A stretch of 37,627 nucleotides of DNA from a virus (taxonomy: Duplodnaviria > Heunggongvirae > Uroviricota > Caudoviricetes): IMG/VR virus record IMGVR_UViG_2778261216_000004; one strand, given 5' to 3'. The position numbers and the translations under genes were made by a program. The first letter of the stretch is position 1. Each line of letters begins with the position of its first letter. Below are positions 3,246 through 28,969 of the stretch, one piece after another. Below the pieces are notes generated by a model. That model was not told the DNA's origin. It did no database searches and worked only from the letters and a program-made list of their open reading frames with translations.

Positions 3246-4304
3246 ATGACAAAAACTATATCGATTTTTAATAACAAAGGTGGTGTTGGTAAAACAACTA
3301 TAATTTGGAATCTTGCAGTATCGCTAGCAGATAAAGGAAAAAGTGTTTTATTAATAGACTTTGATCCCCAGTGTAATCTCTCAATTGCATGTATTGGTGA
3401 TGAGGAATTTTCAGAGTTATTGGAACCTTCAGATGATTTCCCTTTTGGAAAAACGGTTAAAGCATTTGCATTGCCTTACATACAACAAAATACTATAGGT
3501 GAAGTTTATACAACAGAACCTAAGACTAAGACAGATGCAGGCGTTTTGCATATTGTTCCTGGAGACTTTTGGCTTAATACATTTTCAGATATTTTAAATG
3601 TCGGCACTGATGTTATAAGTGGCGCAGGGTTATATCGTTTTATTTTGCCAGATTTGATAACAAAAAAAGCATCAGAGAAAAATGATGTTATTTATGATTA
3701 TGTCCTAATAGATTTACCTCCCTCATTCAATACGCTTGTTAGATCGTCATTGTACTGCTCGGACTATTTTTTAGTTCCTTGCACACCTGATTTATTCTCT
3801 TCATATTGTGTAGGGCTGATTGGTGAGATGTTGCCATCATTTATACGTGATTGGGAGCAGGGCAAGGAAAGATATCTATCAGGTAACCCACGAGATAATA
3901 TTATATCTCAGAAAGGGATGCCTAAATTTGGCGGTTGGATATTCAATGGTTTTGATACGAGAAAGCAAAATGATGTTAAACAAGAGGTTGGTGCAGATGC
4001 AGTTCATCACCGTTCAATAAGAAAAGCGATAGAGGAAAAAATGCTTCCTCAGCTTTCACAGATTTCATCTTACAACGCGGTTCCTAATTTTACTGATTAT
4101 GAACCAGTTGGAAAGATTGAGGACCTCAACGTTATGGCTCCTGATAGTATTATTCAAAATATACCTATTCGCTATTTGTCTCGAGTTAGGCCAACGAATG
4201 CTCTTCGTGGGCGGGGGCAATGGGCAGTTAATCAGGTAGAACTAATGAATGAGATGGCTGGTGAGTATGATCATTTAGCTGAACACATAATAAATAATTT
4301 TTAA
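3246..4304 (+). CDS. Orphan ParA/MinD-family ATPase with an uncharacterised ~150-aa C-terminal extension
   Basis: Deviant Walker A NNKGGVGKTT, the DFDPQCN motif and a Walker B-like YDYVLIDLPP. The gene and its flanks are visibly AT-rich compared with the prophage. No parB-like partner is adjacent. Confidence 0.8.
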   Translation: MTKTISIFNNKGGVGKTTIIWNLAVSLADKGKSVLLIDFDPQCNLSIACIGDEEFSELLEPSDDFPFGKTVKAFALPYIQQNTIGEVYTTEPKTKTDAGVLHIVPGDFWLNTFSDILNVGTDVISGAGLYRFILPDLITKKASEKNDVIYDYVLIDLPPSFNTLVRSSLYCSDYFLVPCTPDLFSSYCVGLIGEMLPSFIRDWEQGKERYLSGNPRDNIISQKGMPKFGGWIFNGFDTRKQNDVKQEVGADAVHHRSIRKAIEEKMLPQLSQISSYNAVPNFTDYEPVGKIEDLNVMAPDSIIQNIPIRYLSRVRPTNALRGRGQWAVNQVELMNEMAGEYDHLAEHIINNF

Positions 4305-5710: not shown

Positions 5711-6895
5711 ATGAGTGAAACTCGTTTTCATGGTGCCCGTGTTACGGAAAGTACCGACCTGGTAACAGCGATTAATGATGTTGATTCCAGTGTTATCGGT
5801 ATCGTGGCAACGGCGGATGATGCGGATGCGGAGCTGTTCCCGCTGAACAAGCCCACACTGCTGACCCGCGTCAATGACGTGCTGGGAAAATGCGGAACAA
5901 CGGGGACGCTTTATCGTGCGCTTAAGGCCATCGCAGACCAGGTGAGCACAAAGGTGATCGTCGTTCGCGTGGCTGAACACAAAGAAGAAGACGGAAAAAC
6001 GCAGGATCAACTGGTTATCGGTGGTTCTGAGAATGACGGCAGCTATACGGGGATGTATGCGCTGCTTGTTGCAGAGCAGGATGAAAGCATCGGATACCGT
6101 CCGCGTATTCTGGCCGCGCCGGAGCTGGACACGGAGGCGGTGACAAAATCCCTGTGCGTGATTGCGGGTAAACTGCGCGCGTTTGTCTATGCCTCATGTC
6201 ATGGCTGTGACACGATGGCTGATGCGATTACCTACCGCCAGAAATTCAACGAACGTGAGGTGATGCTCTTATGGCCGGACTTCATCGCCTACAACCCGAA
6301 AAGTGGCAAAAACGAAACGTTCCCCGCGCCTGCCTATGCGTGCGGCCTTCGTGCGTACATTGACCATGAGCAGGGATGGCACAAATCACTCTCCAACGTT
6401 CCGGTTAAGAATGTGCTGGGGATGTCGAGGCATGTGTTCTGGTCGTTGCAGGCCGAAGACAGTGATGCCAACAGCCTCAACAACAAAGAAATCACGACCA
6501 TTATTCGTCGCAACGGGTTCCGCTTCTGGGGCAACCGCACACCGGAAACGAACGCCTACATCTTTGAGGTGTACACCCGAACCGCACAGGTGCTGGCTGA
6601 TTCAATTGCGGAAGCGCAGTTTGAAACCATCGACAGTCCACTGACGCCTGCGAACGTGAAGGATGTTATCAGTGCCATCAGGGCAAAACTGGATTCGCTG
6701 GTTACTGCCGGGAAACTGATTGGCGCGGAGTGCTGGTATGACGTGGTGGATAACAGCACCACGAATTTACGTCAGGGGCGCGTGCGTATTCGCTACAAAT
6801 ATACGCCTGTTCCCCCGCTGGAAGACATGGAGCTTTACCAGTCGTTTACTGATGAATTCTTTGGTCCCGCATTTGCGGTGCTGGGAGGTGCCTGA
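5711..6895 (+). CDS. FI: Tail sheath protein FI
   Basis: 394 aa; N-terminal region (IGIVATADDADAELFPLNKP) resembles P2 FI. Confidence 0.9.
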   Translation: MSETRFHGARVTESTDLVTAINDVDSSVIGIVATADDADAELFPLNKPTLLTRVNDVLGKCGTTGTLYRALKAIADQVSTKVIVVRVAEHKEEDGKTQDQLVIGGSENDGSYTGMYALLVAEQDESIGYRPRILAAPELDTEAVTKSLCVIAGKLRAFVYASCHGCDTMADAITYRQKFNEREVMLLWPDFIAYNPKSGKNETFPAPAYACGLRAYIDHEQGWHKSLSNVPVKNVLGMSRHVFWSLQAEDSDANSLNNKEITTIIRRNGFRFWGNRTPETNAYIFEVYTRTAQVLADSIAEAQFETIDSPLTPANVKDVISAIRAKLDSLVTAGKLIGAECWYDVVDNSTTNLRQGRVRIRYKYTPVPPLEDMELYQSFTDEFFGPAFAVLGGA

Positions 6896-7941: not shown

Positions 7942-10785
7942 GTGAGCGGGCGGCACTTCGCAGCGGGAATGCAGACAATGAAGACTCTTGATATCCGGGT
8001 CGCTTTCAGCGCCGTTGACAGGCTGACCCGACCTGCCGAAAACGCACGCCGCCTGATGGGGCAGTTTGGTGACTCCATCCAGCGAACGCAGGGGGCGATC
8101 AAAAATCTCGAGCGTCAGGCGCGATCATTTGAGCGCGCCCGCGACGCTGTCAGTAAAGCGGATGCGGGTATCGTGAAAGCACGACGCCAGCTTAACGCCC
8201 TTAATCAGTTACAACGCACGGGTACAGTGCTCAGCGAAAAACAACAAAAGCTGATGCAGCAGTTAAGCACCCGGCTTGAACGCCTGAATGAATCGCGCAC
8301 ACGGGAAATTCAGAAAATGCGGGAGCTTGGCGGAGAGCTGAAACGCCACGGCATTTCCCTGACAGGCAGCGATAACACCATCCAGCAGGCCATCAGACGC
8401 ACCGAACAGTACAACAACCAGCTTGAACGCGAACGGCAGGCGCTTGCGCGTGTAACGCGGGCGCGTGAGCGGTATTCGCGCGCGCAGGAAACCGCGGGAA
8501 AACTGAAAACAGGTGGTGCGCTGGCAACTGGTGCTGCAGCGGCGGGCGGCTATGCTGCCGGGCGTTTTTTGCAGCCTGCGATCGGGTTCGGCAAAGAGAT
8601 GTCCCGCGTTCAGGCACTGACGCGAATCGACAAAAACAGCCCGCAGTTTAAGGCGCTGCGTGAGCAGGCGTTAAAACTTGGTTCTGAAACACAGTTTACT
8701 GCGAGTGATGCCGCCAGTGGGCAGAGCTTTCTGGCAATGGCTGGTTTTACTCCGCAGGCCATTCAGGCCGCATTGCCCGGTGTTCTTAATATGGCGCTGG
8801 CAGGTGGCGTCGAACTCGGCGAGACGGCTGATATAGGCTCCAATATCCTCACACAGTTCAACCTGACAGCCGATCAAATGGACCGGGTTGGCGATACGCT
8901 GACAGCGGCATTCACCCGGACCAATACTGATTTACGCGCGCTGGGCGAAACCATGAAGTATACCGGTCCGGTTGCCGCAAAACTTGGTATCAGTCTTGAA
9001 GAAGCGGCAGCCATGGCCGGGATGCTTGCCAATAATGGTCTTCGTGGAAGCGATGCTGGTACGGCCATGCGCGCAAGTCTGTCCCGCCTTGCATCACCGC
9101 CAAAAGCTGCGGCTGATGCGCTGAAAGAGCTGGGGGTGTCAGTTGCTGACGCCAGAGGCAAAATGCGCCCGATGGAGGATGTGCTGCTTGATCTCTATAA
9201 GGCGACACAAAAATACGGACAGGTGGACCAGGTTTCCTTCTTCAAGGACATCGCCGGAGAAGAGGCGTTCGTTGGTTTGCAGACGCTTGTTGCGGCGGCT
9301 GGTTCAGGAGAGCTGCAAAAACTGACCAGAGAATTGCAGGGGGCAAGGGGAGAGGCCGATCGCGTTGCAAAAGTAATGGCCGATAATCTTGATGGGGACC
9401 TGAAAAATCTCGACAGCGCATGGGAAGGTCTTCGTATTCGCATCAGTGATCTGGTTGACGGTCCGCTGCGTTCTGTCACGCAGTGGCTCACGCGGGTGCT
9501 TGAAAAAATCACCTCGCTGGCGCAGGCCCATCCGGTACTGACGCGCCAGCTACTGATAGCAGGCGGTGCGTTGCTGGCAATGACTGCAACGGTTGGCTCG
9601 TTGTCGCTGGCTATTGGTGTGCTTGCTGGCCCGCTGGCAAAACTGCGTCTTGGTTTTTCTCTCCTGACCGGATCAATGAATGCTGTCAGGGTCCTGCCAG
9701 CACTATGGGGAATGGTGACGGGTTCCGTTTCTTTGCTGGGAGGTGCTATCGGGGCGCTGTTCAGTCCGGTCGGATTGATTGCTGCTGCGTTTGTGGCTGC
9801 GGCGGTTCTCATCTGGAAATACTGGGAACCCATTAAGGCGTTTTATGCCGGGGTGTTCAACGGGATTATGGAACGGCTGGCTCCGTTGCGCGAAACCTTT
9901 GAACGGTTTGGCCCTGTTTTTGACGCAATCGGAAGCGGGATCAGTCAGGTGTTTAACTGGTTTAAATCGCTGCTGTCACCGATGGAGTCCAGCAAGGAAA
10001 CGCTGGATAAATGTACCAGTGCTGGCGAGATATTCGGTAACGTTCTTGGCGGTGCGTTACAGCTTGTTCTGACACCTGCAAAAATGCTACTGGATACGCT
10101 GGCGTGGATACTTGAAAAACTTGGCGTCCTTCCGGATGAAGCGGAAAGGGCGCGCAAGAAAATCGAAGACGCACAGCGTGCGGCCATTCTTCAGGACAAG
10201 GTTGCCTTGCTTCAGGGGGACCTTGCGAAAATCAATCCGCCGAAGCCTGTGGAAAATGGCAATGGCACCGGGGGTGATAAACCCAAAGACAACAAACCAT
10301 TCACAGACAGCAATACCGGGACGCTACGCAGACTCAGCAAAATTGCTGATAACACAGGTAAGCTGGTTGATGAGACGAAAAAACGTATTGGCCCCGGCGA
10401 TATTGTCTTTAAGAACCTGCCCCGCGCACTTGCCGTTCGTGGGGAGTGGCAGGAGCGGAAGAGTGCGCAGGTCAGTAAGCCTGCTTCCGCAATCAACATC
10501 ACACCCGTGGTCCCGACTCCTCTGCCTCCGGCGCTGGTCCCTGTTGTTGCGGCCAGCTCCCGCCCGGTGGCGGAGGCCATACGATCGCCAGTGGCATCAG
10601 TTCCTGCAACTTCCCGTAACCGGGAGCCTGTTGTCTCCGGATTTGGCGGTGAAATTCATGTTCATCTGCATAACGTTGTTACGCAGAATCCCCGCGAACT
10701 GGCGAAACTGGTCGGTGAAATGGTCAGGGCAGAAATGGAACGGCGCGCCCGTGCCGGGCGTGGCAGTTTTTGCGATAAAGATTGA
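7942..10785 (+). CDS. T: Tail tape-measure protein T
   Basis: 947 aa, coiled-coil N-terminus, Gly/Ala-rich hydrophobic middle, position after E/E'. The exact start is uncertain (alternative ATGs at 7969 and 7978). Confidence 0.85.
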   Translation: MSGRHFAAGMQTMKTLDIRVAFSAVDRLTRPAENARRLMGQFGDSIQRTQGAIKNLERQARSFERARDAVSKADAGIVKARRQLNALNQLQRTGTVLSEKQQKLMQQLSTRLERLNESRTREIQKMRELGGELKRHGISLTGSDNTIQQAIRRTEQYNNQLERERQALARVTRARERYSRAQETAGKLKTGGALATGAAAAGGYAAGRFLQPAIGFGKEMSRVQALTRIDKNSPQFKALREQALKLGSETQFTASDAASGQSFLAMAGFTPQAIQAALPGVLNMALAGGVELGETADIGSNILTQFNLTADQMDRVGDTLTAAFTRTNTDLRALGETMKYTGPVAAKLGISLEEAAAMAGMLANNGLRGSDAGTAMRASLSRLASPPKAAADALKELGVSVADARGKMRPMEDVLLDLYKATQKYGQVDQVSFFKDIAGEEAFVGLQTLVAAAGSGELQKLTRELQGARGEADRVAKVMADNLDGDLKNLDSAWEGLRIRISDLVDGPLRSVTQWLTRVLEKITSLAQAHPVLTRQLLIAGGALLAMTATVGSLSLAIGVLAGPLAKLRLGFSLLTGSMNAVRVLPALWGMVTGSVSLLGGAIGALFSPVGLIAAAFVAAAVLIWKYWEPIKAFYAGVFNGIMERLAPLRETFERFGPVFDAIGSGISQVFNWFKSLLSPMESSKETLDKCTSAGEIFGNVLGGALQLVLTPAKMLLDTLAWILEKLGVLPDEAERARKKIEDAQRAAILQDKVALLQGDLAKINPPKPVENGNGTGGDKPKDNKPFTDSNTGTLRRLSKIADNTGKLVDETKKRIGPGDIVFKNLPRALAVRGEWQERKSAQVSKPASAINITPVVPTPLPPALVPVVAASSRPVAEAIRSPVASVPATSRNREPVVSGFGGEIHVHLHNVVTQNPRELAKLVGEMVRAEMERRARAGRGSFCDKD

Positions 10786-10791
10786 GGAGTC

Positions 10792-11286
10792 ATGGCCATG
10801 ATGATGATCTACGGCATGTTTGTTTTTGAGCTGCGCACATTGCCGCATCAGCAGTTACAGCAAAACAAAAGCTGGCGGCATGTGAAAAATGAACGCGTTA
10901 ACCGTTCAGCAAGCTGGCAGTATATCGGTGCAGGTGATGATCGCATTGTGCTTTCCGGCGTGCTTTATCCTGAAATTACAGGTGGCGAAGTGTCGCTTTC
11001 GTTGCTGACCACGCAGGCATATACAGGACGCCCCTGGCCTCTGATTGATGGTGTCGGGCAGATTTACGGCATGTATGTACTGACTGAAACGAATACGACC
11101 CGTTCCGAGTTTGATCGCTACGGTAAGGCGAAAAAGATAGAATTTTCACTGACTCTTGAACGCTGTGATGAGGATTTGCGGGAGCGCCTGCAATCCTCAT
11201 CGTTCAGCGATATGTTGTCCGGCTTCAAAGATAAGGTGACATCATCCCTTAATAGCGCGGCCAGCTCAGTTAAGGGGCTGCTCTGA
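10792..11286 (+). CDS. U: Tail protein U
   Basis: Matches P2 gpU (MMMVLGLFVF...WQYIG.GDD...LSGVLYPE). Confidence 0.85.
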   Translation: MAMMMIYGMFVFELRTLPHQQLQQNKSWRHVKNERVNRSASWQYIGAGDDRIVLSGVLYPEITGGEVSLSLLTTQAYTGRPWPLIDGVGQIYGMYVLTETNTTRSEFDRYGKAKKIEFSLTLERCDEDLRERLQSSSFSDMLSGFKDKVTSSLNSAASSVKGLL

Positions 11287-11442
11287 TTTAACGTATGTCG
11301 CCAATTTCCTGATGAAGGTGACTGGCGACTTGCTGTTGTATGTCCTTCTCAGAAAATTGTTTTTGAATAACAAATAACAGGATTTTATAATCTCTTAACC
11401 TTATAACATGTGTGGTCTGAAATAATAATTAAGGAGATTATC

Positions 11443-12015
11443 GTGCTGTCTTACTTAATGGCAATTCACTTTGTTTTATTTGGGGACTCTACTAATTTAA
11501 AAAACTTCTGGAAATATGAAGTAATTCGGCGGAAACGTATGGATATCTGGAGGCTTTTAAGAGAGAAAAAACAGCGTAACCGGAATTTCCTTTTCTGGTG
11601 GCGGTTGGCTAACGAAATGTATATTAATGGTAATAAATTACATAAGAAAGCAGCCAAAAAGTTAAACAGTAAAATAATTAACAAATTTGGTTGTGAAATT
11701 GGATTGGGCGCAAATATTGGAAAAGGGTTAACAATTCCCCATCATGCTGGAATTGTTGTTCATTTTGCTGTTGATGCTGGTGAAAATCTGGTGTTACGAC
11801 AGAATACTACCATTGGACAGATAGATGGTGACATGCCTGGTTCAAGAGTAAAAATTGGTAGTAACGTTGATATCGGAGCTAATTGTTGCATCATTGGATT
11901 ATCACGTAAAATTGGGGATAATGTAAAAATAGGTGCAATGTCTTTTATAAATAAAGATATACCATCGAACTGCACATATATAACTAAAAAGAGCGGTGTT
12001 GTATTGTATAAATAG
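11443..12015 (+). CDS. Hexapeptide-repeat (left-handed beta-helix) acyltransferase, accessory gene
   Basis: Repeats of the IG.N..IG type resembling WcaB/CysE-like acetyltransferases. GTG start with an AAGGAG ribosome-binding site. Visibly AT-rich. Sits at the position of P2 Z/fun. Confidence 0.7.
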   Translation: MLSYLMAIHFVLFGDSTNLKNFWKYEVIRRKRMDIWRLLREKKQRNRNFLFWWRLANEMYINGNKLHKKAAKKLNSKIINKFGCEIGLGANIGKGLTIPHHAGIVVHFAVDAGENLVLRQNTTIGQIDGDMPGSRVKIGSNVDIGANCCIIGLSRKIGDNVKIGAMSFINKDIPSNCTYITKKSGVVLYK

Positions 12016-12022
12016 AGTACAT

Positions 12023-12058
12023 AAAGCCATCTATATTTCAATCGATGGCTTTTTCTCT
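12023..12058 (+). terminator. Hairpin terminator between the convergent acyltransferase and tfa genes
   Basis: AAAGCCATC-(12 nt loop)-GATGGCTTT followed by TTTCTCTTT. Confidence 0.5.
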
Positions 12059-12637
12059 TTATTGTGGGGCGACTGGCCACTCAACATCCGCTGCTACCGC
12101 TGTATTAACACGATTCAACAATACCCGGTATGTCTTCCATGCAGCCAGTAACGATGCCTCTTCCTCCGTTGCAATATCCAAATCTACGGCATCCTGAAGT
12201 GGCGCAATATGCTCGCTGGCTACCTGCATCAGGCTGTTTTTTGTTTCTTCCGCCTCCCTTATCCGAAACAGTTTTTCTGCTTCTGCATCTTTCACCCAGG
12301 ATGTGCCGTTCCACTTCTGATACTCTCCATACGGCGACAACCAGGTAACATTTTCCGGTAATGGACCGAGTTCAGAAATAAATAACGAGTCCCCTGATGC
12401 CACGTCATAAACCGTTTTACCCCGATGGTCTTCAACGAGATGCCACGATGCCTCATCACTGTTGAAAACGGCCACGAAGCCAGCCGGAATATCTGGCGGG
12501 GCAATATCGGTACTGTTTGCAGGCAGACCTGTATGAGGCGGAATGTATGCGTCACCTTCACCAATAAATTCATTAGTTCCGGCCAGCAGATTATAAATTT
12601 TTATGGTCCGTGGTTGTTCACTCATTCTGAAATCCAT
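12059..12637 (-). CDS. G: Tail fibre assembly protein (G-like chaperone)
   Basis: Tfa-like N-terminus ([24 protein letters not shown]). Start set at an internal ATG 3 codons into the ORF. Confidence 0.8.
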
Positions 12638-12645
12638 GTTCACCT

Positions 12646-13548
12646 CTACTTAATATCAGAGACAGAATATTGTTTATTGAGCGTATGGGTGTGAGCACCA
12701 ATAACGATGCTACTTCTGTGGCTATGTGCGCCAGAGGTGACATTACCTACGGGATTTTCTGGATTAATCCGGTGTATATGCGAATCAGGGCGAAACCGGT
12801 TATTAGCCTGATGTTGTATCAGTACATCATCAGCCTGATGTTCAGGGTTAATACAGACCTGCCCGGAACGTGAGCAATACGTCCGATAATCGCCGCATCC
12901 AATATATTTAGCATCCGCATAACGGCAAACAGAATTACCCGGACAGTATGCATATGTGCCAAATACTGCCGACTGGCGGGATTGTGCGTATTCCCAGTTA
13001 ATTGATTCTGTTTTTTTATTAAAGTTATCCCAGGCCTGCTTCATCTGGCGGGCAACACTTTCAAACGGTACCTGACCACATCCAGCCCCCATCGCAGGGA
13101 ATACCACCGTCTTTATTTTCCTGTCTGTCGTTGCGTTTTTATTGTGCTGAAAGATGGCAAGCAGAGCGGCCCAGGTTGCGTTATATACAGCGTCTGTTCC
13201 GTCAATTGTCAGCGGAACACGCATTGTTGGCGCATGTACCAGCCAGGGGTGATGATTATGCCCCGTTTCAATAACAAACGCAGATCCTACAGGCTGCTCG
13301 CCTAGATATTCACGAAGAATATGATTCTGAACGCGGGACTGTAACTGAGTACCGAAGAATGCGGTAATGGCGGCATCAACACCGCCATCCATCAGGCCGA
13401 AACTATTTGCCGCACTTACCATACAGTCAAATTCTCTGATTGTTTCAAATGGCTTTCCGACAATATTCACATTATCTGCGTTTGCAAATACCCGCTTAAA
13501 TGCTTCAGCCATTTCTGTTACTGGTGCAGAAAGAATGAGCGTAATCAT
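12646..13548 (-). CDS. Macro-domain protein with a Cys-rich, His-x-His C-terminal tail
   Basis: [19 protein letters not shown] and [10 protein letters not shown] fit the macrodomain NAAN...GGGV.GAI signature. Its ATG overlaps the H stop (ATGA) and has a GAGG ribosome-binding site. C-terminal [18 protein letters not shown] resembles the H tip repeats. Confidence 0.7.
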
Positions 13549-27693: not shown

Positions 27694-28005
27694 TTATTCA
27701 GGAAATAACGCCCGGATATTTCCGGCCATCTGACTGGTTATCTGTGCGGTTGATACTGGCTGTGATGCGGGGCGTTCTGTCCTGGTTTGTGTCACTGATA
27801 ACGCTTCATCACCAGCCCATGCAGCCAGTCGATAAGCCTCTGCCGGATTCATTTTCAGAAGTGCCAGCCCGGCCAGAAAAGCCACGCGTTGGCCGCTTTT
27901 GCGGGCTTCTGGTGTAAGGCTGTCCAGCCAGGCGCATGCTTCTCCTTCGTTCTTGACGGCGGTGGGCTTCAGATAGAAACTTATCCGTCTGGTTGGAGTC
28001 GTCAT
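27694..28005 (-). CDS. parR: ParR-like DNA-binding adaptor
   Basis: RRISFYLKP...ARKSGQRVAFLAGLALL resembles R1 ParR (RRTIAFKLNP...RAALTAGLAL). AGGAG ribosome-binding site; the ATG lies 4 nt after the parM-like stop. Confidence 0.55.
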   Translation of the reverse strand: MTTPTRRISFYLKPTAVKNEGEACAWLDSLTPEARKSGQRVAFLAGLALLKMNPAEAYRLAAWAGDEALSVTQTRTERPASQPVSTAQITSQMAGNIRALFPE

Positions 28006-28009
28006 TGGT

Positions 28010-28969
28010 TTACTCCTTGTCCATTGCGTACAGCCCATTAACTAGAGCAAACTGTGGCACCCCGTCCGCGATGAAAGTCGCATTAACTCCGCAGGCTTCG
28101 CGGATAGCGGGTGCCACAATCTCCGCCCCTCCACCGACAACCATCACCCGCCCGTAACCCGAAAAACCCGCCAGCGCGCGGATCACGCGTTGTTTCAGTG
28201 TTTCTTCCTTTTCACGAATTACCGCCATCAGGCTGGCGTAATGCGCGTCATTGTGGATGTGCTGGCGCAGCCAGGCTTCATCATGGCGATGTTCGATAAT
28301 GGTATTGGCGATGTGGTGACTGGTGCGCATACCGTTAGTGGCCATCACCGACAGTACGGCATCGGCCATCAGAGAAACGCCCACGTGTGGATCGCAAAAC
28401 ACCTGGCTGATACCTGCCAGTTGCCCCTGAACCTTTGCCACATCCAGCGTGGTTCCGCCCAAATCCACAATCAGCAGGGATTCAAACGGACTCATGTCAG
28501 CCAGTGCCTTAAAGCCAGCCGGAATGGATTCAGGCATAACCCGTACGTTACGGATAGTGAATGCTTCGCCGTTCTGGTACTCCACCGGGCGCATGACGTT
28601 CGCTTTTTTGCGGTTGATGTTGGCCATGTCCGGCTGTGCGTTTGTATCGAAATACTCGCTTAGTGGCAGGGTGACAACCACATCCACTTCCTGTGGTGTG
28701 ATGCCTGATTTGACCAGCGCGTGATGAATGGCAATTATATTCACATCGCTGTACTGGTATTGCGTGTCGGTCGTCTGGACAAAGCGATCGCTGACCGGAT
28801 CAAAACCATAGCGCACGCCATCAAGCATGTAGTTCGCGGGCTGCGTGCCACCGAACGGCGCAGACCATTCCGACTTGAAGCTGTTCGGGCTGATGGCGTT
28901 GCGGCGTTCGCCGTTCTCAGTCCATGCCAGCTTGATGTTGGTGGAGCCGTCGTCGATACAAATTTTCAT
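28010..28969 (-). CDS. parM: ParM/StbA-like actin-like ATPase
   Basis: MKICIDDGSTNIKLAW...ISPNSFK...YQYSDVNIIAIHHAL...LIVDLGGTTLD...VGGGAE closely follows R1 ParM motifs (MLVFIDDGSTNIKLQW..., IIDLGGTTLD, VIGGGAE). Confidence 0.8.
   Translation of the reverse strand: MKICIDDGSTNIKLAWTENGERRNAISPNSFKSEWSAPFGGTQPANYMLDGVRYGFDPVSDRFVQTTDTQYQYSDVNIIAIHHALVKSGITPQEVDVVVTLPLSEYFDTNAQPDMANINRKKANVMRPVEYQNGEAFTIRNVRVMPESIPAGFKALADMSPFESLLIVDLGGTTLDVAKVQGQLAGISQVFCDPHVGVSLMADAVLSVMATNGMRTSHHIANTIIEHRHDEAWLRQHIHNDAHYASLMAVIREKEETLKQRVIRALAGFSGYGRVMVVGGGAEIVAPAIREACGVNATFIADGVPQFALVNGLYAMDKE

Follow-up and report, generated by a model that had tools for sequence, protein, structure and literature searches.

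A prophage-borne beta-helix acetyltransferase that travels with a tail-fibre assembly gene and may modify an envelope glycan

The stretch of DNA analysed here (the window) is the 37,627-nucleotide IMG/VR record IMGVR_UViG_2778261216_000004, a prophage of the P2 family that carries, beside its tail-fibre genes, a small gene named "serine (O-)acetyltransferase" by every database source. Going by its sequence, the product is a left-handed beta-helix (LbH) acetyltransferase of the branch that holds the serine acetyltransferases (SATs), WcaB, and EpsC, with the catalytic dyad kept; judged in the same way, the label "serine acetyltransferase" is very probably wrong. It is a real gene under purifying selection, not a chance open reading frame (ORF), and acetyltransferase, terminator, and tail-fibre assembly gene (tfa) move as one block across three phage lineages (P88-like, P1-like, and Mu/e14-like). 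As to what the enzyme does, we find the chances evenly balanced that it is a prophage cargo gene (moron) whose product O-acetylates an envelope glycan, possibly lipopolysaccharide (LPS).

An earlier note, made from the letters of the sequence alone, had described a hexapeptide-repeat acyltransferase of the CysE/WcaB-like branch, and matches in NCBIfam, PDB, and PHROG agree with that description. The protein consists of an N-terminal helical domain (approximately residues 2-82) followed by a C-terminal left-handed beta-helix, and hexapeptide repeats of the [LIV]-G-x4 type are visible in the translation (IGLGANIGKGLTI, KIGSNVDIGANCCIIG, and KIGDNVKIGAMSFI). The Pfam models Hexapep (E 3e-05, 24 bits) and Hexapep_2 (E 0.003) both fall below the 27-bit gathering score. 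At E<=0.01 there are matches to 21 LbH acetyltransferase models of NCBIfam, with EpsC (4.3e-21), cysE (8e-17), and WcaB (7e-15) at the top, and to 37 LbH chains in the PDB, headed by the serine acetyltransferases 6wye and 4n69 (E ~1e-12) and aligned chiefly over the beta-helix. PHROG 2154 matches with an E of 1.4e-87, residues 13-190 being aligned to profile positions 3-181 of 185. An AlphaFold monomer model has a mean per-residue confidence (pLDDT) of 73, with the helical N-terminal domain confident, and a Foldseek search with this model returned SATs only (TM score ~0.4-0.67), nothing beyond the sequence searches. No membrane span is predicted. The family has motifs of its own, WWRLAN, RQNTTIG, and IGAMSF, and its invariant or near-invariant positions are E/D85, H100, Q120, T123-I124-G125, and the motifs WWRLAN and GAMSF. 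Fused domains were considered in two long homologues, P0037 and P0038 (269-278 aa); their extensions look like upstream gene-calling artefacts.

Taken at its word, the database name would mean a true serine O-acetyltransferase, that is, a short CysE isoform serving as an auxiliary metabolic gene that raises the output of cysteine, either in the lysogen or while the phage grows. We regard this as very improbable. The name itself speaks for it, as do the SATs at the head of the PDB and Foldseek matches and the presence of the dyad: in the alignment to 6wye, His100 falls on the catalytic His162 of the Neisseria gonorrhoeae enzyme (NgSAT) and Glu85 on Asp147, the other member of its dyad (residue roles from PMC8786284). 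Four other NgSAT active-site residues are, however, replaced, and three of these are L-serine contacts. Asp161, Arg196, and His197, which bind L-serine in NgSAT, correspond here to Pro99, Ser134, and Arg135, and the active-site residue Glu170 to Phe108, and the equivalent of a further L-serine-binding residue, Asp96, falls outside the aligned region. All four replaced columns (99, 108, 134, and 135) are variable within the acetyltransferase family; position 85 is always D or E, and H100 is invariant or nearly so (25+25 family members). The curated profiles also stand against a true SAT, with 61.7 bits for cysE TIGR01172 (cutoff 210.65) and 36.8 for PRK11132 (cutoff 397), and the relatives lie in LPS and phage-tail contexts, not in cys operons. 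As read from the sequence, there would be no CysK-binding C-terminal tail, because the protein stops (...KKSGVVLYK) ~10 residues past the last coil. The lack of any Pfam match to SATase_N is a weak point by itself: truncated CysE isoforms without the first N-terminal helices exist (PMC13040420) and are also short there, so that a short N-terminus is insufficient to exclude CysE. It is because the active-site residues and the scores do exclude CysE that the name is so probably mistaken, and the housekeeping CysE paralogue that the earlier note had set against its own reading is, by the cutoff scores and the lost L-serine-contacting residues, not what the window carries. Likeness to CysE thus extends to the fold, the His-Asp/Glu dyad, and the succession of N-terminal helical domain and beta-helix, but not to the L-serine contacts, the C-terminal regulatory tail, or the cutoffs.

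The scores are likewise far below the cutoffs of the two nearest polysaccharide enzymes. EpsC (NF041874), although the best match, gives 75.4 bits, half of its cutoff of 150, and WcaB gives 54.8 bits against 196 (PRK10191) and 54 against 194.65 (TIGR04016). The protein shares with WcaB and EpsC the LbH branch, a length of ~160-190 aa, and an active-site strand with the His-containing pattern "xHHxG"; it differs from them in its own motifs WWRLAN and RQNTTIG and in its location, which is in a prophage between gpU and tfa and not in a wca or eps cluster.

The case for a glycan as the target comes from the company that relatives keep. A context panel of 80 loci, with one genome per species, was drawn from homologues 40-70% identical to the acetyltransferase, and a glycan context was counted only for GT9, GT25, NeuB, Kdo-kinase, MptE-like, and pyruvyl-transferase neighbours; "MsbA" tblastn matches were rejected as a sign of glycan context, being non-specific for any ABC transporter. 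The homologues occur in three settings: prophage tail regions, LPS-type clusters, and isolated, uninformative chromosomal sites (e.g., in Rahnella). In Pseudomonas and Halopseudomonas the homologue lies between a Kdo/WaaP-family kinase gene and a NeuB gene, and one Pseudomonas locus (L127) reads, in order, hldE-like, msbA-like ABC exporter, kinase, acetyltransferase, NeuB, GNAT, GT28-C, and cytidylyltransferase-aminotransferase, the last genes forming a nonulosonic-acid operon. In Zophobihabitans three GT9 heptosyltransferase-type genes and a pyruvyl transferase precede the acetyltransferase and a GT25 LPS glycosyltransferase follows it, and in Orbaceae/Gilliamella the homologue adjoins a GT9 gene. 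In Photorhabdus (L070, 7872-9412; also L068, L072, and L146) it is followed 36 nt on by an MptE-like (DUF115) gene, and the pair, with a GC content of 0.27-0.29 and a series of tail-fibre cassettes alongside, resembles a moron of two genes for glycan modification. The homologues within LPS-core-type clusters share 41-49% identity with the acetyltransferase of the window, and it is these that make a surface polysaccharide, proposed as a target in the earlier note, the best-supported reading. The acetyltransferase is equally far (41-50%) from the glycan-cluster members and from other phage-borne members, and the invariant residues are common to both.

If an envelope glycan is the target, the enzyme would be a cytoplasmic, soluble, acetyl-CoA-dependent O-acetyltransferase, trimeric if it keeps to the rule of its family. 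The gene, which has a ribosome-binding site, a candidate promoter, and a terminator to itself, would be a moron expressed from the prophage. Soluble and with no predicted membrane span, the enzyme could work only on intermediates at the cytoplasmic face of the inner membrane, so that a sugar of the glycan would be O-acetylated while assembly is still under way there. The LPS core or outer core would be the leading candidate acceptor; the O-unit, colanic acid, and enterobacterial common antigen would also be possible. The surface of the lysogen would be altered; phages that recognise the glycan would then adsorb differently, and antigenicity might change as well. In this chain we infer the acceptor, the expression and its timing in the lysogen, and the effect on phage adsorption.

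By analogy, the closest functional precedent is NeuO of the Escherichia coli K1 prophage CUS-3, which is likewise a prophage-encoded, soluble LbH O-acetyltransferase. NeuO is located in the tail-spike region of CUS-3, and the acetyltransferase here is also encoded in a prophage beside receptor-binding tail genes. The surface glycan that NeuO modifies is the K1 capsule, and phage resistance is affected (PMC3046976, PMC13001214). Unlike in the case of CUS-3, no phase-variation heptanucleotide tract was found here (Tandem Repeats Finder, 11200-12100, minimum score 30), and the hosts are not limited to K1 but include Shiga toxin-producing E. coli (STEC) O157, O111, O26, O103, and others. No sequence relationship between the two enzymes was detected either, the solved structure of NeuO (PMC3046976) being absent from the 37 PDB chains matched at E<=0.01. 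A different comparison is offered by the enzymes of converting phages that reshape the LPS of the cell they inhabit, as the prophage here would modify the LPS of its own lysogen. Sf6 Oac and GtrABC are such modules, integral membrane proteins acting after export, whereas the present acetyltransferase is soluble, belongs to the LbH family, and has no predicted membrane span.

The gene is well conserved. The ORF is intact in all 60 of the full-length close copies found on viral contigs, and Nei-Gojobori dN/dS against the allele of the window is 0.04-0.26, save for the closest two or three alleles, where substitutions are too few for an estimate. At least 80% of the region occurs at 90-100% identity in 530 of 5426 complete E. 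coli genomes (~10%), the carriers among the records listed being prominently STEC O157:H7, O111, O26, and O103, and the identical protein is found on at least 1000 contigs. The family as a whole is small: of 1.84 billion representatives, 18 clusters (50% identity) match at E<=1e-30 and 357 at E<=1e-10. Within the phage collection the gene occurs in three P1-like records only and in none of the sequenced P88-like phages. Diverged homologues (~65-68% DNA identity) were also seen among insertion sequence elements on E. coli plasmids of virulence type, one intact on an IncFII plasmid of enteropathogenic E. coli (L164, 5833-6420) and one a truncated pseudogene on ~190-kb plasmids of avian pathogenic E. 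coli (L162, 7001-7279).

In essentially all close viral-contig copies for which the flank is available, the acetyltransferase faces a TfaR/TfaQ-type tfa gene ~50 nt away, and this convergent layout is kept with or without gpU upstream. The 61-nt junction between the two genes, with the hairpin that they have in common, is conserved to 88-100% whether the phage context is P88-like, P1-like, or another. The same block of acetyltransferase, terminator, and tfa lies within the cin-invertible segment of the P1-like phage-plasmids JL22 and Ro157c2 and at the end of a Mu/e14-like prophage (L163). In several copies that are not of the P88 type (L057, L060, and L062), homology upstream of the acetyltransferase stops ~20 nt before its start, which places the left edge of the block just 5' of the ribosome-binding site. 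The convergent layout recurs even at ~45% identity (L065, L066, L069, L092, L101, L132, and L138).

Joint movement of this kind, between unrelated phages and with no tie to a single fibre-tip variant, is also what would be expected if the acetyltransferase were a passenger dragged along with an exchanged fibre-tip/tfa cassette, or if it acted on the phage's own fibre or chaperone. We think this explanation quite unlikely. Low dN/dS values (mostly 0.04-0.26) and intact copies throughout (60/60) do not suit a passenger, the convergent layout with tfa persists at 45% identity, and the family also occurs outside phages, in LPS clusters. As for the variant in which the fibre itself is modified, we know of no precedent for acetylation of fibre proteins by an LbH enzyme.

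Another alternative, which we consider improbable although less so than the passenger, is a target other than a glycan: an antibiotic or other xenobiotic, a signalling nucleotide, or a protein, or else a role in defence or counter-defence. Variable cargo slots in P2-family phages are known to harbour defence genes (PMC9122126, PMC13586616), and the gene occupies one of them; the macro-domain protein encoded nearby is another unusual cargo. Neither of the two papers on these hotspots mentions an acetyltransferase, however, and no PADLOC-DB 2.0 model matches at E<=0.01. The earlier note had proposed a profile search that would separate CysE, WcaB, and xenobiotic acetyltransferases; it placed the protein below the curated cutoffs of CysE, WcaB, and EpsC, and no Vat/CatB-type xenobiotic acetyltransferase model was among the NCBIfam matches. 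Finally, the homologues in glycan clusters point elsewhere.

Several observations nevertheless weigh against the glycan-modifying moron that we favour. Fibre tips that are served by lambda-type Tfa chaperones may bind a porin and not a glycan. The tips attached to the acetyltransferase block vary, with 63-100% identity to residues 390-598 of the tail fibre protein H, so that the acetyltransferase is not tied to one fibre tip; in addition, this type of tfa is present in 4504 of 5426 genomes versus ~530 for the acetyltransferase, and given both facts, linkage to a particular receptor is not established. In the limited context panel, 38 of 80 loci have neither phage nor glycan neighbours. The glycan context rests on homologues of 41-49% identity, and the acceptor specificity of LbH enzymes changes easily. 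Confidence in the beta-helix of the AlphaFold model is low, with pLDDT values of 51-72 in blocks of 10 residues, and promoter-like sites in the region number 5 versus 4.7 expected from shuffles, that is, they are not enriched. The only paper that discusses the acetyltransferase, on the P1-like phage JL22, gives its role as "still unknown" (PMC9603915).

A bolder form of the glycan reading would join the two lines of evidence. In this form the protein would be an LPS-core or outer-core O-acetyltransferase otherwise absent from E. coli, carried in a portable cassette of fibre tip, tfa, terminator, and acetyltransferase that is swapped among P2-like, P1-like, and Mu/e14-like phages. We consider it unlikely. 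If it were true, a phage would gain a new receptor specificity and an enzyme for editing the glycan of its lysogen in one step, and the gene could define an unrecognised LPS variant in STEC, given the many STEC carriers.

The features of the gene and its surroundings are collected in Table 1. The mechanical ORF extends over 11410-12015 (+), the actual start being the GTG at 11443: the 190-aa product agrees in length and position with the RefSeq coding sequence WP_000954196.1 of an E. coli locus that is 100% identical, and homologues align from residue 1. The earlier note had pointed out an AT-rich plus-strand gene with a strong ribosome-binding site, flanked by hairpin terminators, and this description holds. 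GC content is 0.345 in the acetyltransferase stretch 11400-11999, compared with 0.46-0.59 in the flanking tail genes, and the ribosome-binding site has the sequence AAGGAG. Both hairpins were revealed by folding, neither having been picked up by a consensus terminator scan, whose limit the loop of the downstream one exceeds. The segment that holds the upstream hairpin (11284-11345, 62 nt) folds with -22 kcal/mol (z -4.5, 0/200 shuffles equally stable), and this hairpin is a possible terminator of the tail operon, probably a leaky one. The downstream hairpin folds with -14.9 kcal/mol on the plus strand and -14.3 kcal/mol on the minus strand (z -5.2 and -4.0) and is likely a bidirectional terminator; a variant of it with a 13-bp stem was scored as a terminator in the Mu/e14-like prophage.

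Table 1. Positions in the window of the acetyltransferase gene, its signals, and the two genes that bound the slot
Feature	Position	Strand	Remarks
gpU tail protein	10792..11286	+	Pfam Phage_P2_GpU E 5.5e-39; ends the FI-FII-E-T-U operon; left neighbour of the slot
hairpin	11297..11329	+	directly 3' of the gpU stop; GUCGCCA...UGGCGAC then UUGCUGUUGU
sigma-70-like promoter candidate	11363..11391	+	TTGAAT-17-TATAAT; 52 nt 5' of the start codon; 10/12 matches
ribosome-binding site	11432..11437	+	AAGGAG; 5 nt ahead of the GTG start; read from the sequence
acetyltransferase gene	11443..12015	+	190 aa plus stop; RefSeq coding sequence of identical extent
hairpin	12023..12052	both	AAAGCCAUC...GAUGGCUUU; common to the convergent acetyltransferase and tfa; U-rich runs on both strands
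tail-fibre assembly protein (TfaR/TfaQ type)	12059..12643	-	Pfam Caudo_TAP E 1.3e-39; convergent, 43 nt from the acetyltransferase

Since counts of promoter-like sites are not above those in shuffles, the site at 11363-11391 is a candidate only and was not taken as a sign of expression. A plus-strand candidate also lies 5' of the acetyltransferase in the P1-like and Mu/e14-like contexts, and these candidates are consistent with independent transcription of the gene, short of proof. An Rfam scan of 10700-12800 found no RNA family in or around the acetyltransferase gene. An inverted repeat (11303-11322 / 12551-12570, 20 nt, 85%) was considered as the relic of an invertase crossover and rejected as chance-level and unlike gix and cix sites.

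The window itself is a P88-like prophage (Xuanwuvirus, P2-family); over most of its structural region it shares 95-96% identity with phages Chuche, P88, and 520873. Its gene order is D on the minus strand; FI, FII, E, T, and U on the plus strand; the acetyltransferase, also on the plus strand; and then tfa, a macro-domain gene, H, I, J, W, V, and further genes, all on the minus strand. In the 100%-identical locus of E. coli, gpU carries the annotation "phage tail protein"; the tail fibre gene H lies two genes further on from tfa. Because the FI-FII-E-T-U operon converges on H-G in P88-like phages, the slot is the interval U|G, which in P88 and 520873 holds an alternative (invertible) fibre/tfa cassette and a DNA invertase and no Z/fun. 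The earlier note had placed the gene in the Z/fun cargo position of P2, between the tail-fibre and sheath genes. That it fills a variable slot directly downstream of G stands, but its flanks are gpU and tfa and not the sheath gene, which lies at 5711-6895, ~4.4 kb upstream of the slot. Like Z/fun, it is AT-rich, non-essential, and directly downstream of the tail-fibre assembly gene G; unlike Z/fun, it sits in a slot bounded by gpU, and it has no relation to PADLOC defence models. The classical G|FI slot, between sheath gene FI and tfa, does hold a homologue, 49-51% identical, in P2-like prophages of Buttiauxella (L097 and L101), and as it is filled only in these, the analogy with Z/fun fits relatives and not the window. 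The broader suggestion of a cargo-type gene agrees with its AT-richness, its separate transcription unit, and its place beside the tail-fibre assembly gene.

Two further observations concern the neighbours on the fibre side. Within the 3' half of tfa, the Rfam model IS009, a candidate E. coli small RNA, matches at 12096-12294 (-) with 192 bits against a gathering score of 117, and this "RNA family" may be the conserved end of tfa genes. Between H and tfa, at 12646-13548 (-), a gene whose start overlaps the H stop (ATGA) encodes a 300-aa macro-domain protein (Pfam Macro 8e-19, PHROG 2613 7e-149), the last ~45 residues of which carry HxH repeats weakly like the H tip (blastp E 0.005). It may be a fibre-attached or ADP-ribose-related module. 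Only about one in four close loci has its gene, the arrangement being H-macro-tfa each time, and the gene is thus not coupled to the acetyltransferase.

The prophage also carries other genes of cargo type. A ParA/AAA_31-type ATPase gene (3246-4304, +, 352 aa) lies between ogr (2727-2987, -) and gene D, with a weak, P-loop-level PADLOC match only (PDC-M28B, 6.6e-08); as ogr and D are adjacent in an otherwise near-identical prophage (L001), the ogr-D interval is a second variable cargo slot. In the same related prophage a Hok/Gef-family toxin is annotated where the window has a hydrophobic 46-aa ORF (2395-2535, -). At the prophage end, an N6/N4 DNA methyltransferase gene (1226-2017, -; PADLOC MTase_II 2.5e-63) shares its start region with a Com-like zinc-finger ORF (1962-2168, -), an arrangement like Mu com/mom with a methylase instead. 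Beside replication gene A, a ParM gene (StbA_N 3.7e-82) and an StbB-like plasmid-stability gene (27694-28969, -) make up a plasmid-type segregation module inside a P2-family phage.

A prophage-borne acetyltransferase near receptor-binding genes is an already recognised kind of cargo. In Klebsiella, putative acetyltransferases are present in 5-30% of prophages per K-locus (PMC13123978). For the present gene in P2-like or tail-fibre contexts, we found mentions in the literature only for JL22, where it is noted as an unexplained "serine acetyltransferase" (PMC9603915), and for the Citrobacter rodentium prophage phiNP, in which a gene of the same name is ORF4, a "fitness" cargo (PMC6456863). Three points are mildly new: the evidence that the protein is not CysE, its movement as a unit with a fibre chaperone in three phage lineages, and its relatives in LPS-core clusters. 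About one in ten complete E. coli genomes carries this acetyltransferase under a misleading metabolic name. Should it have no role on a glycan, it would be one more uncharacterised moron. If, on the other hand, it does acetylate an envelope glycan, a systematic annotation error would be corrected, the retention of the gene beside receptor-binding genes in three phage lineages would be explained, and these genomes would harbour unrecorded surface variation with consequences for phage susceptibility, serology, and possibly host recognition.

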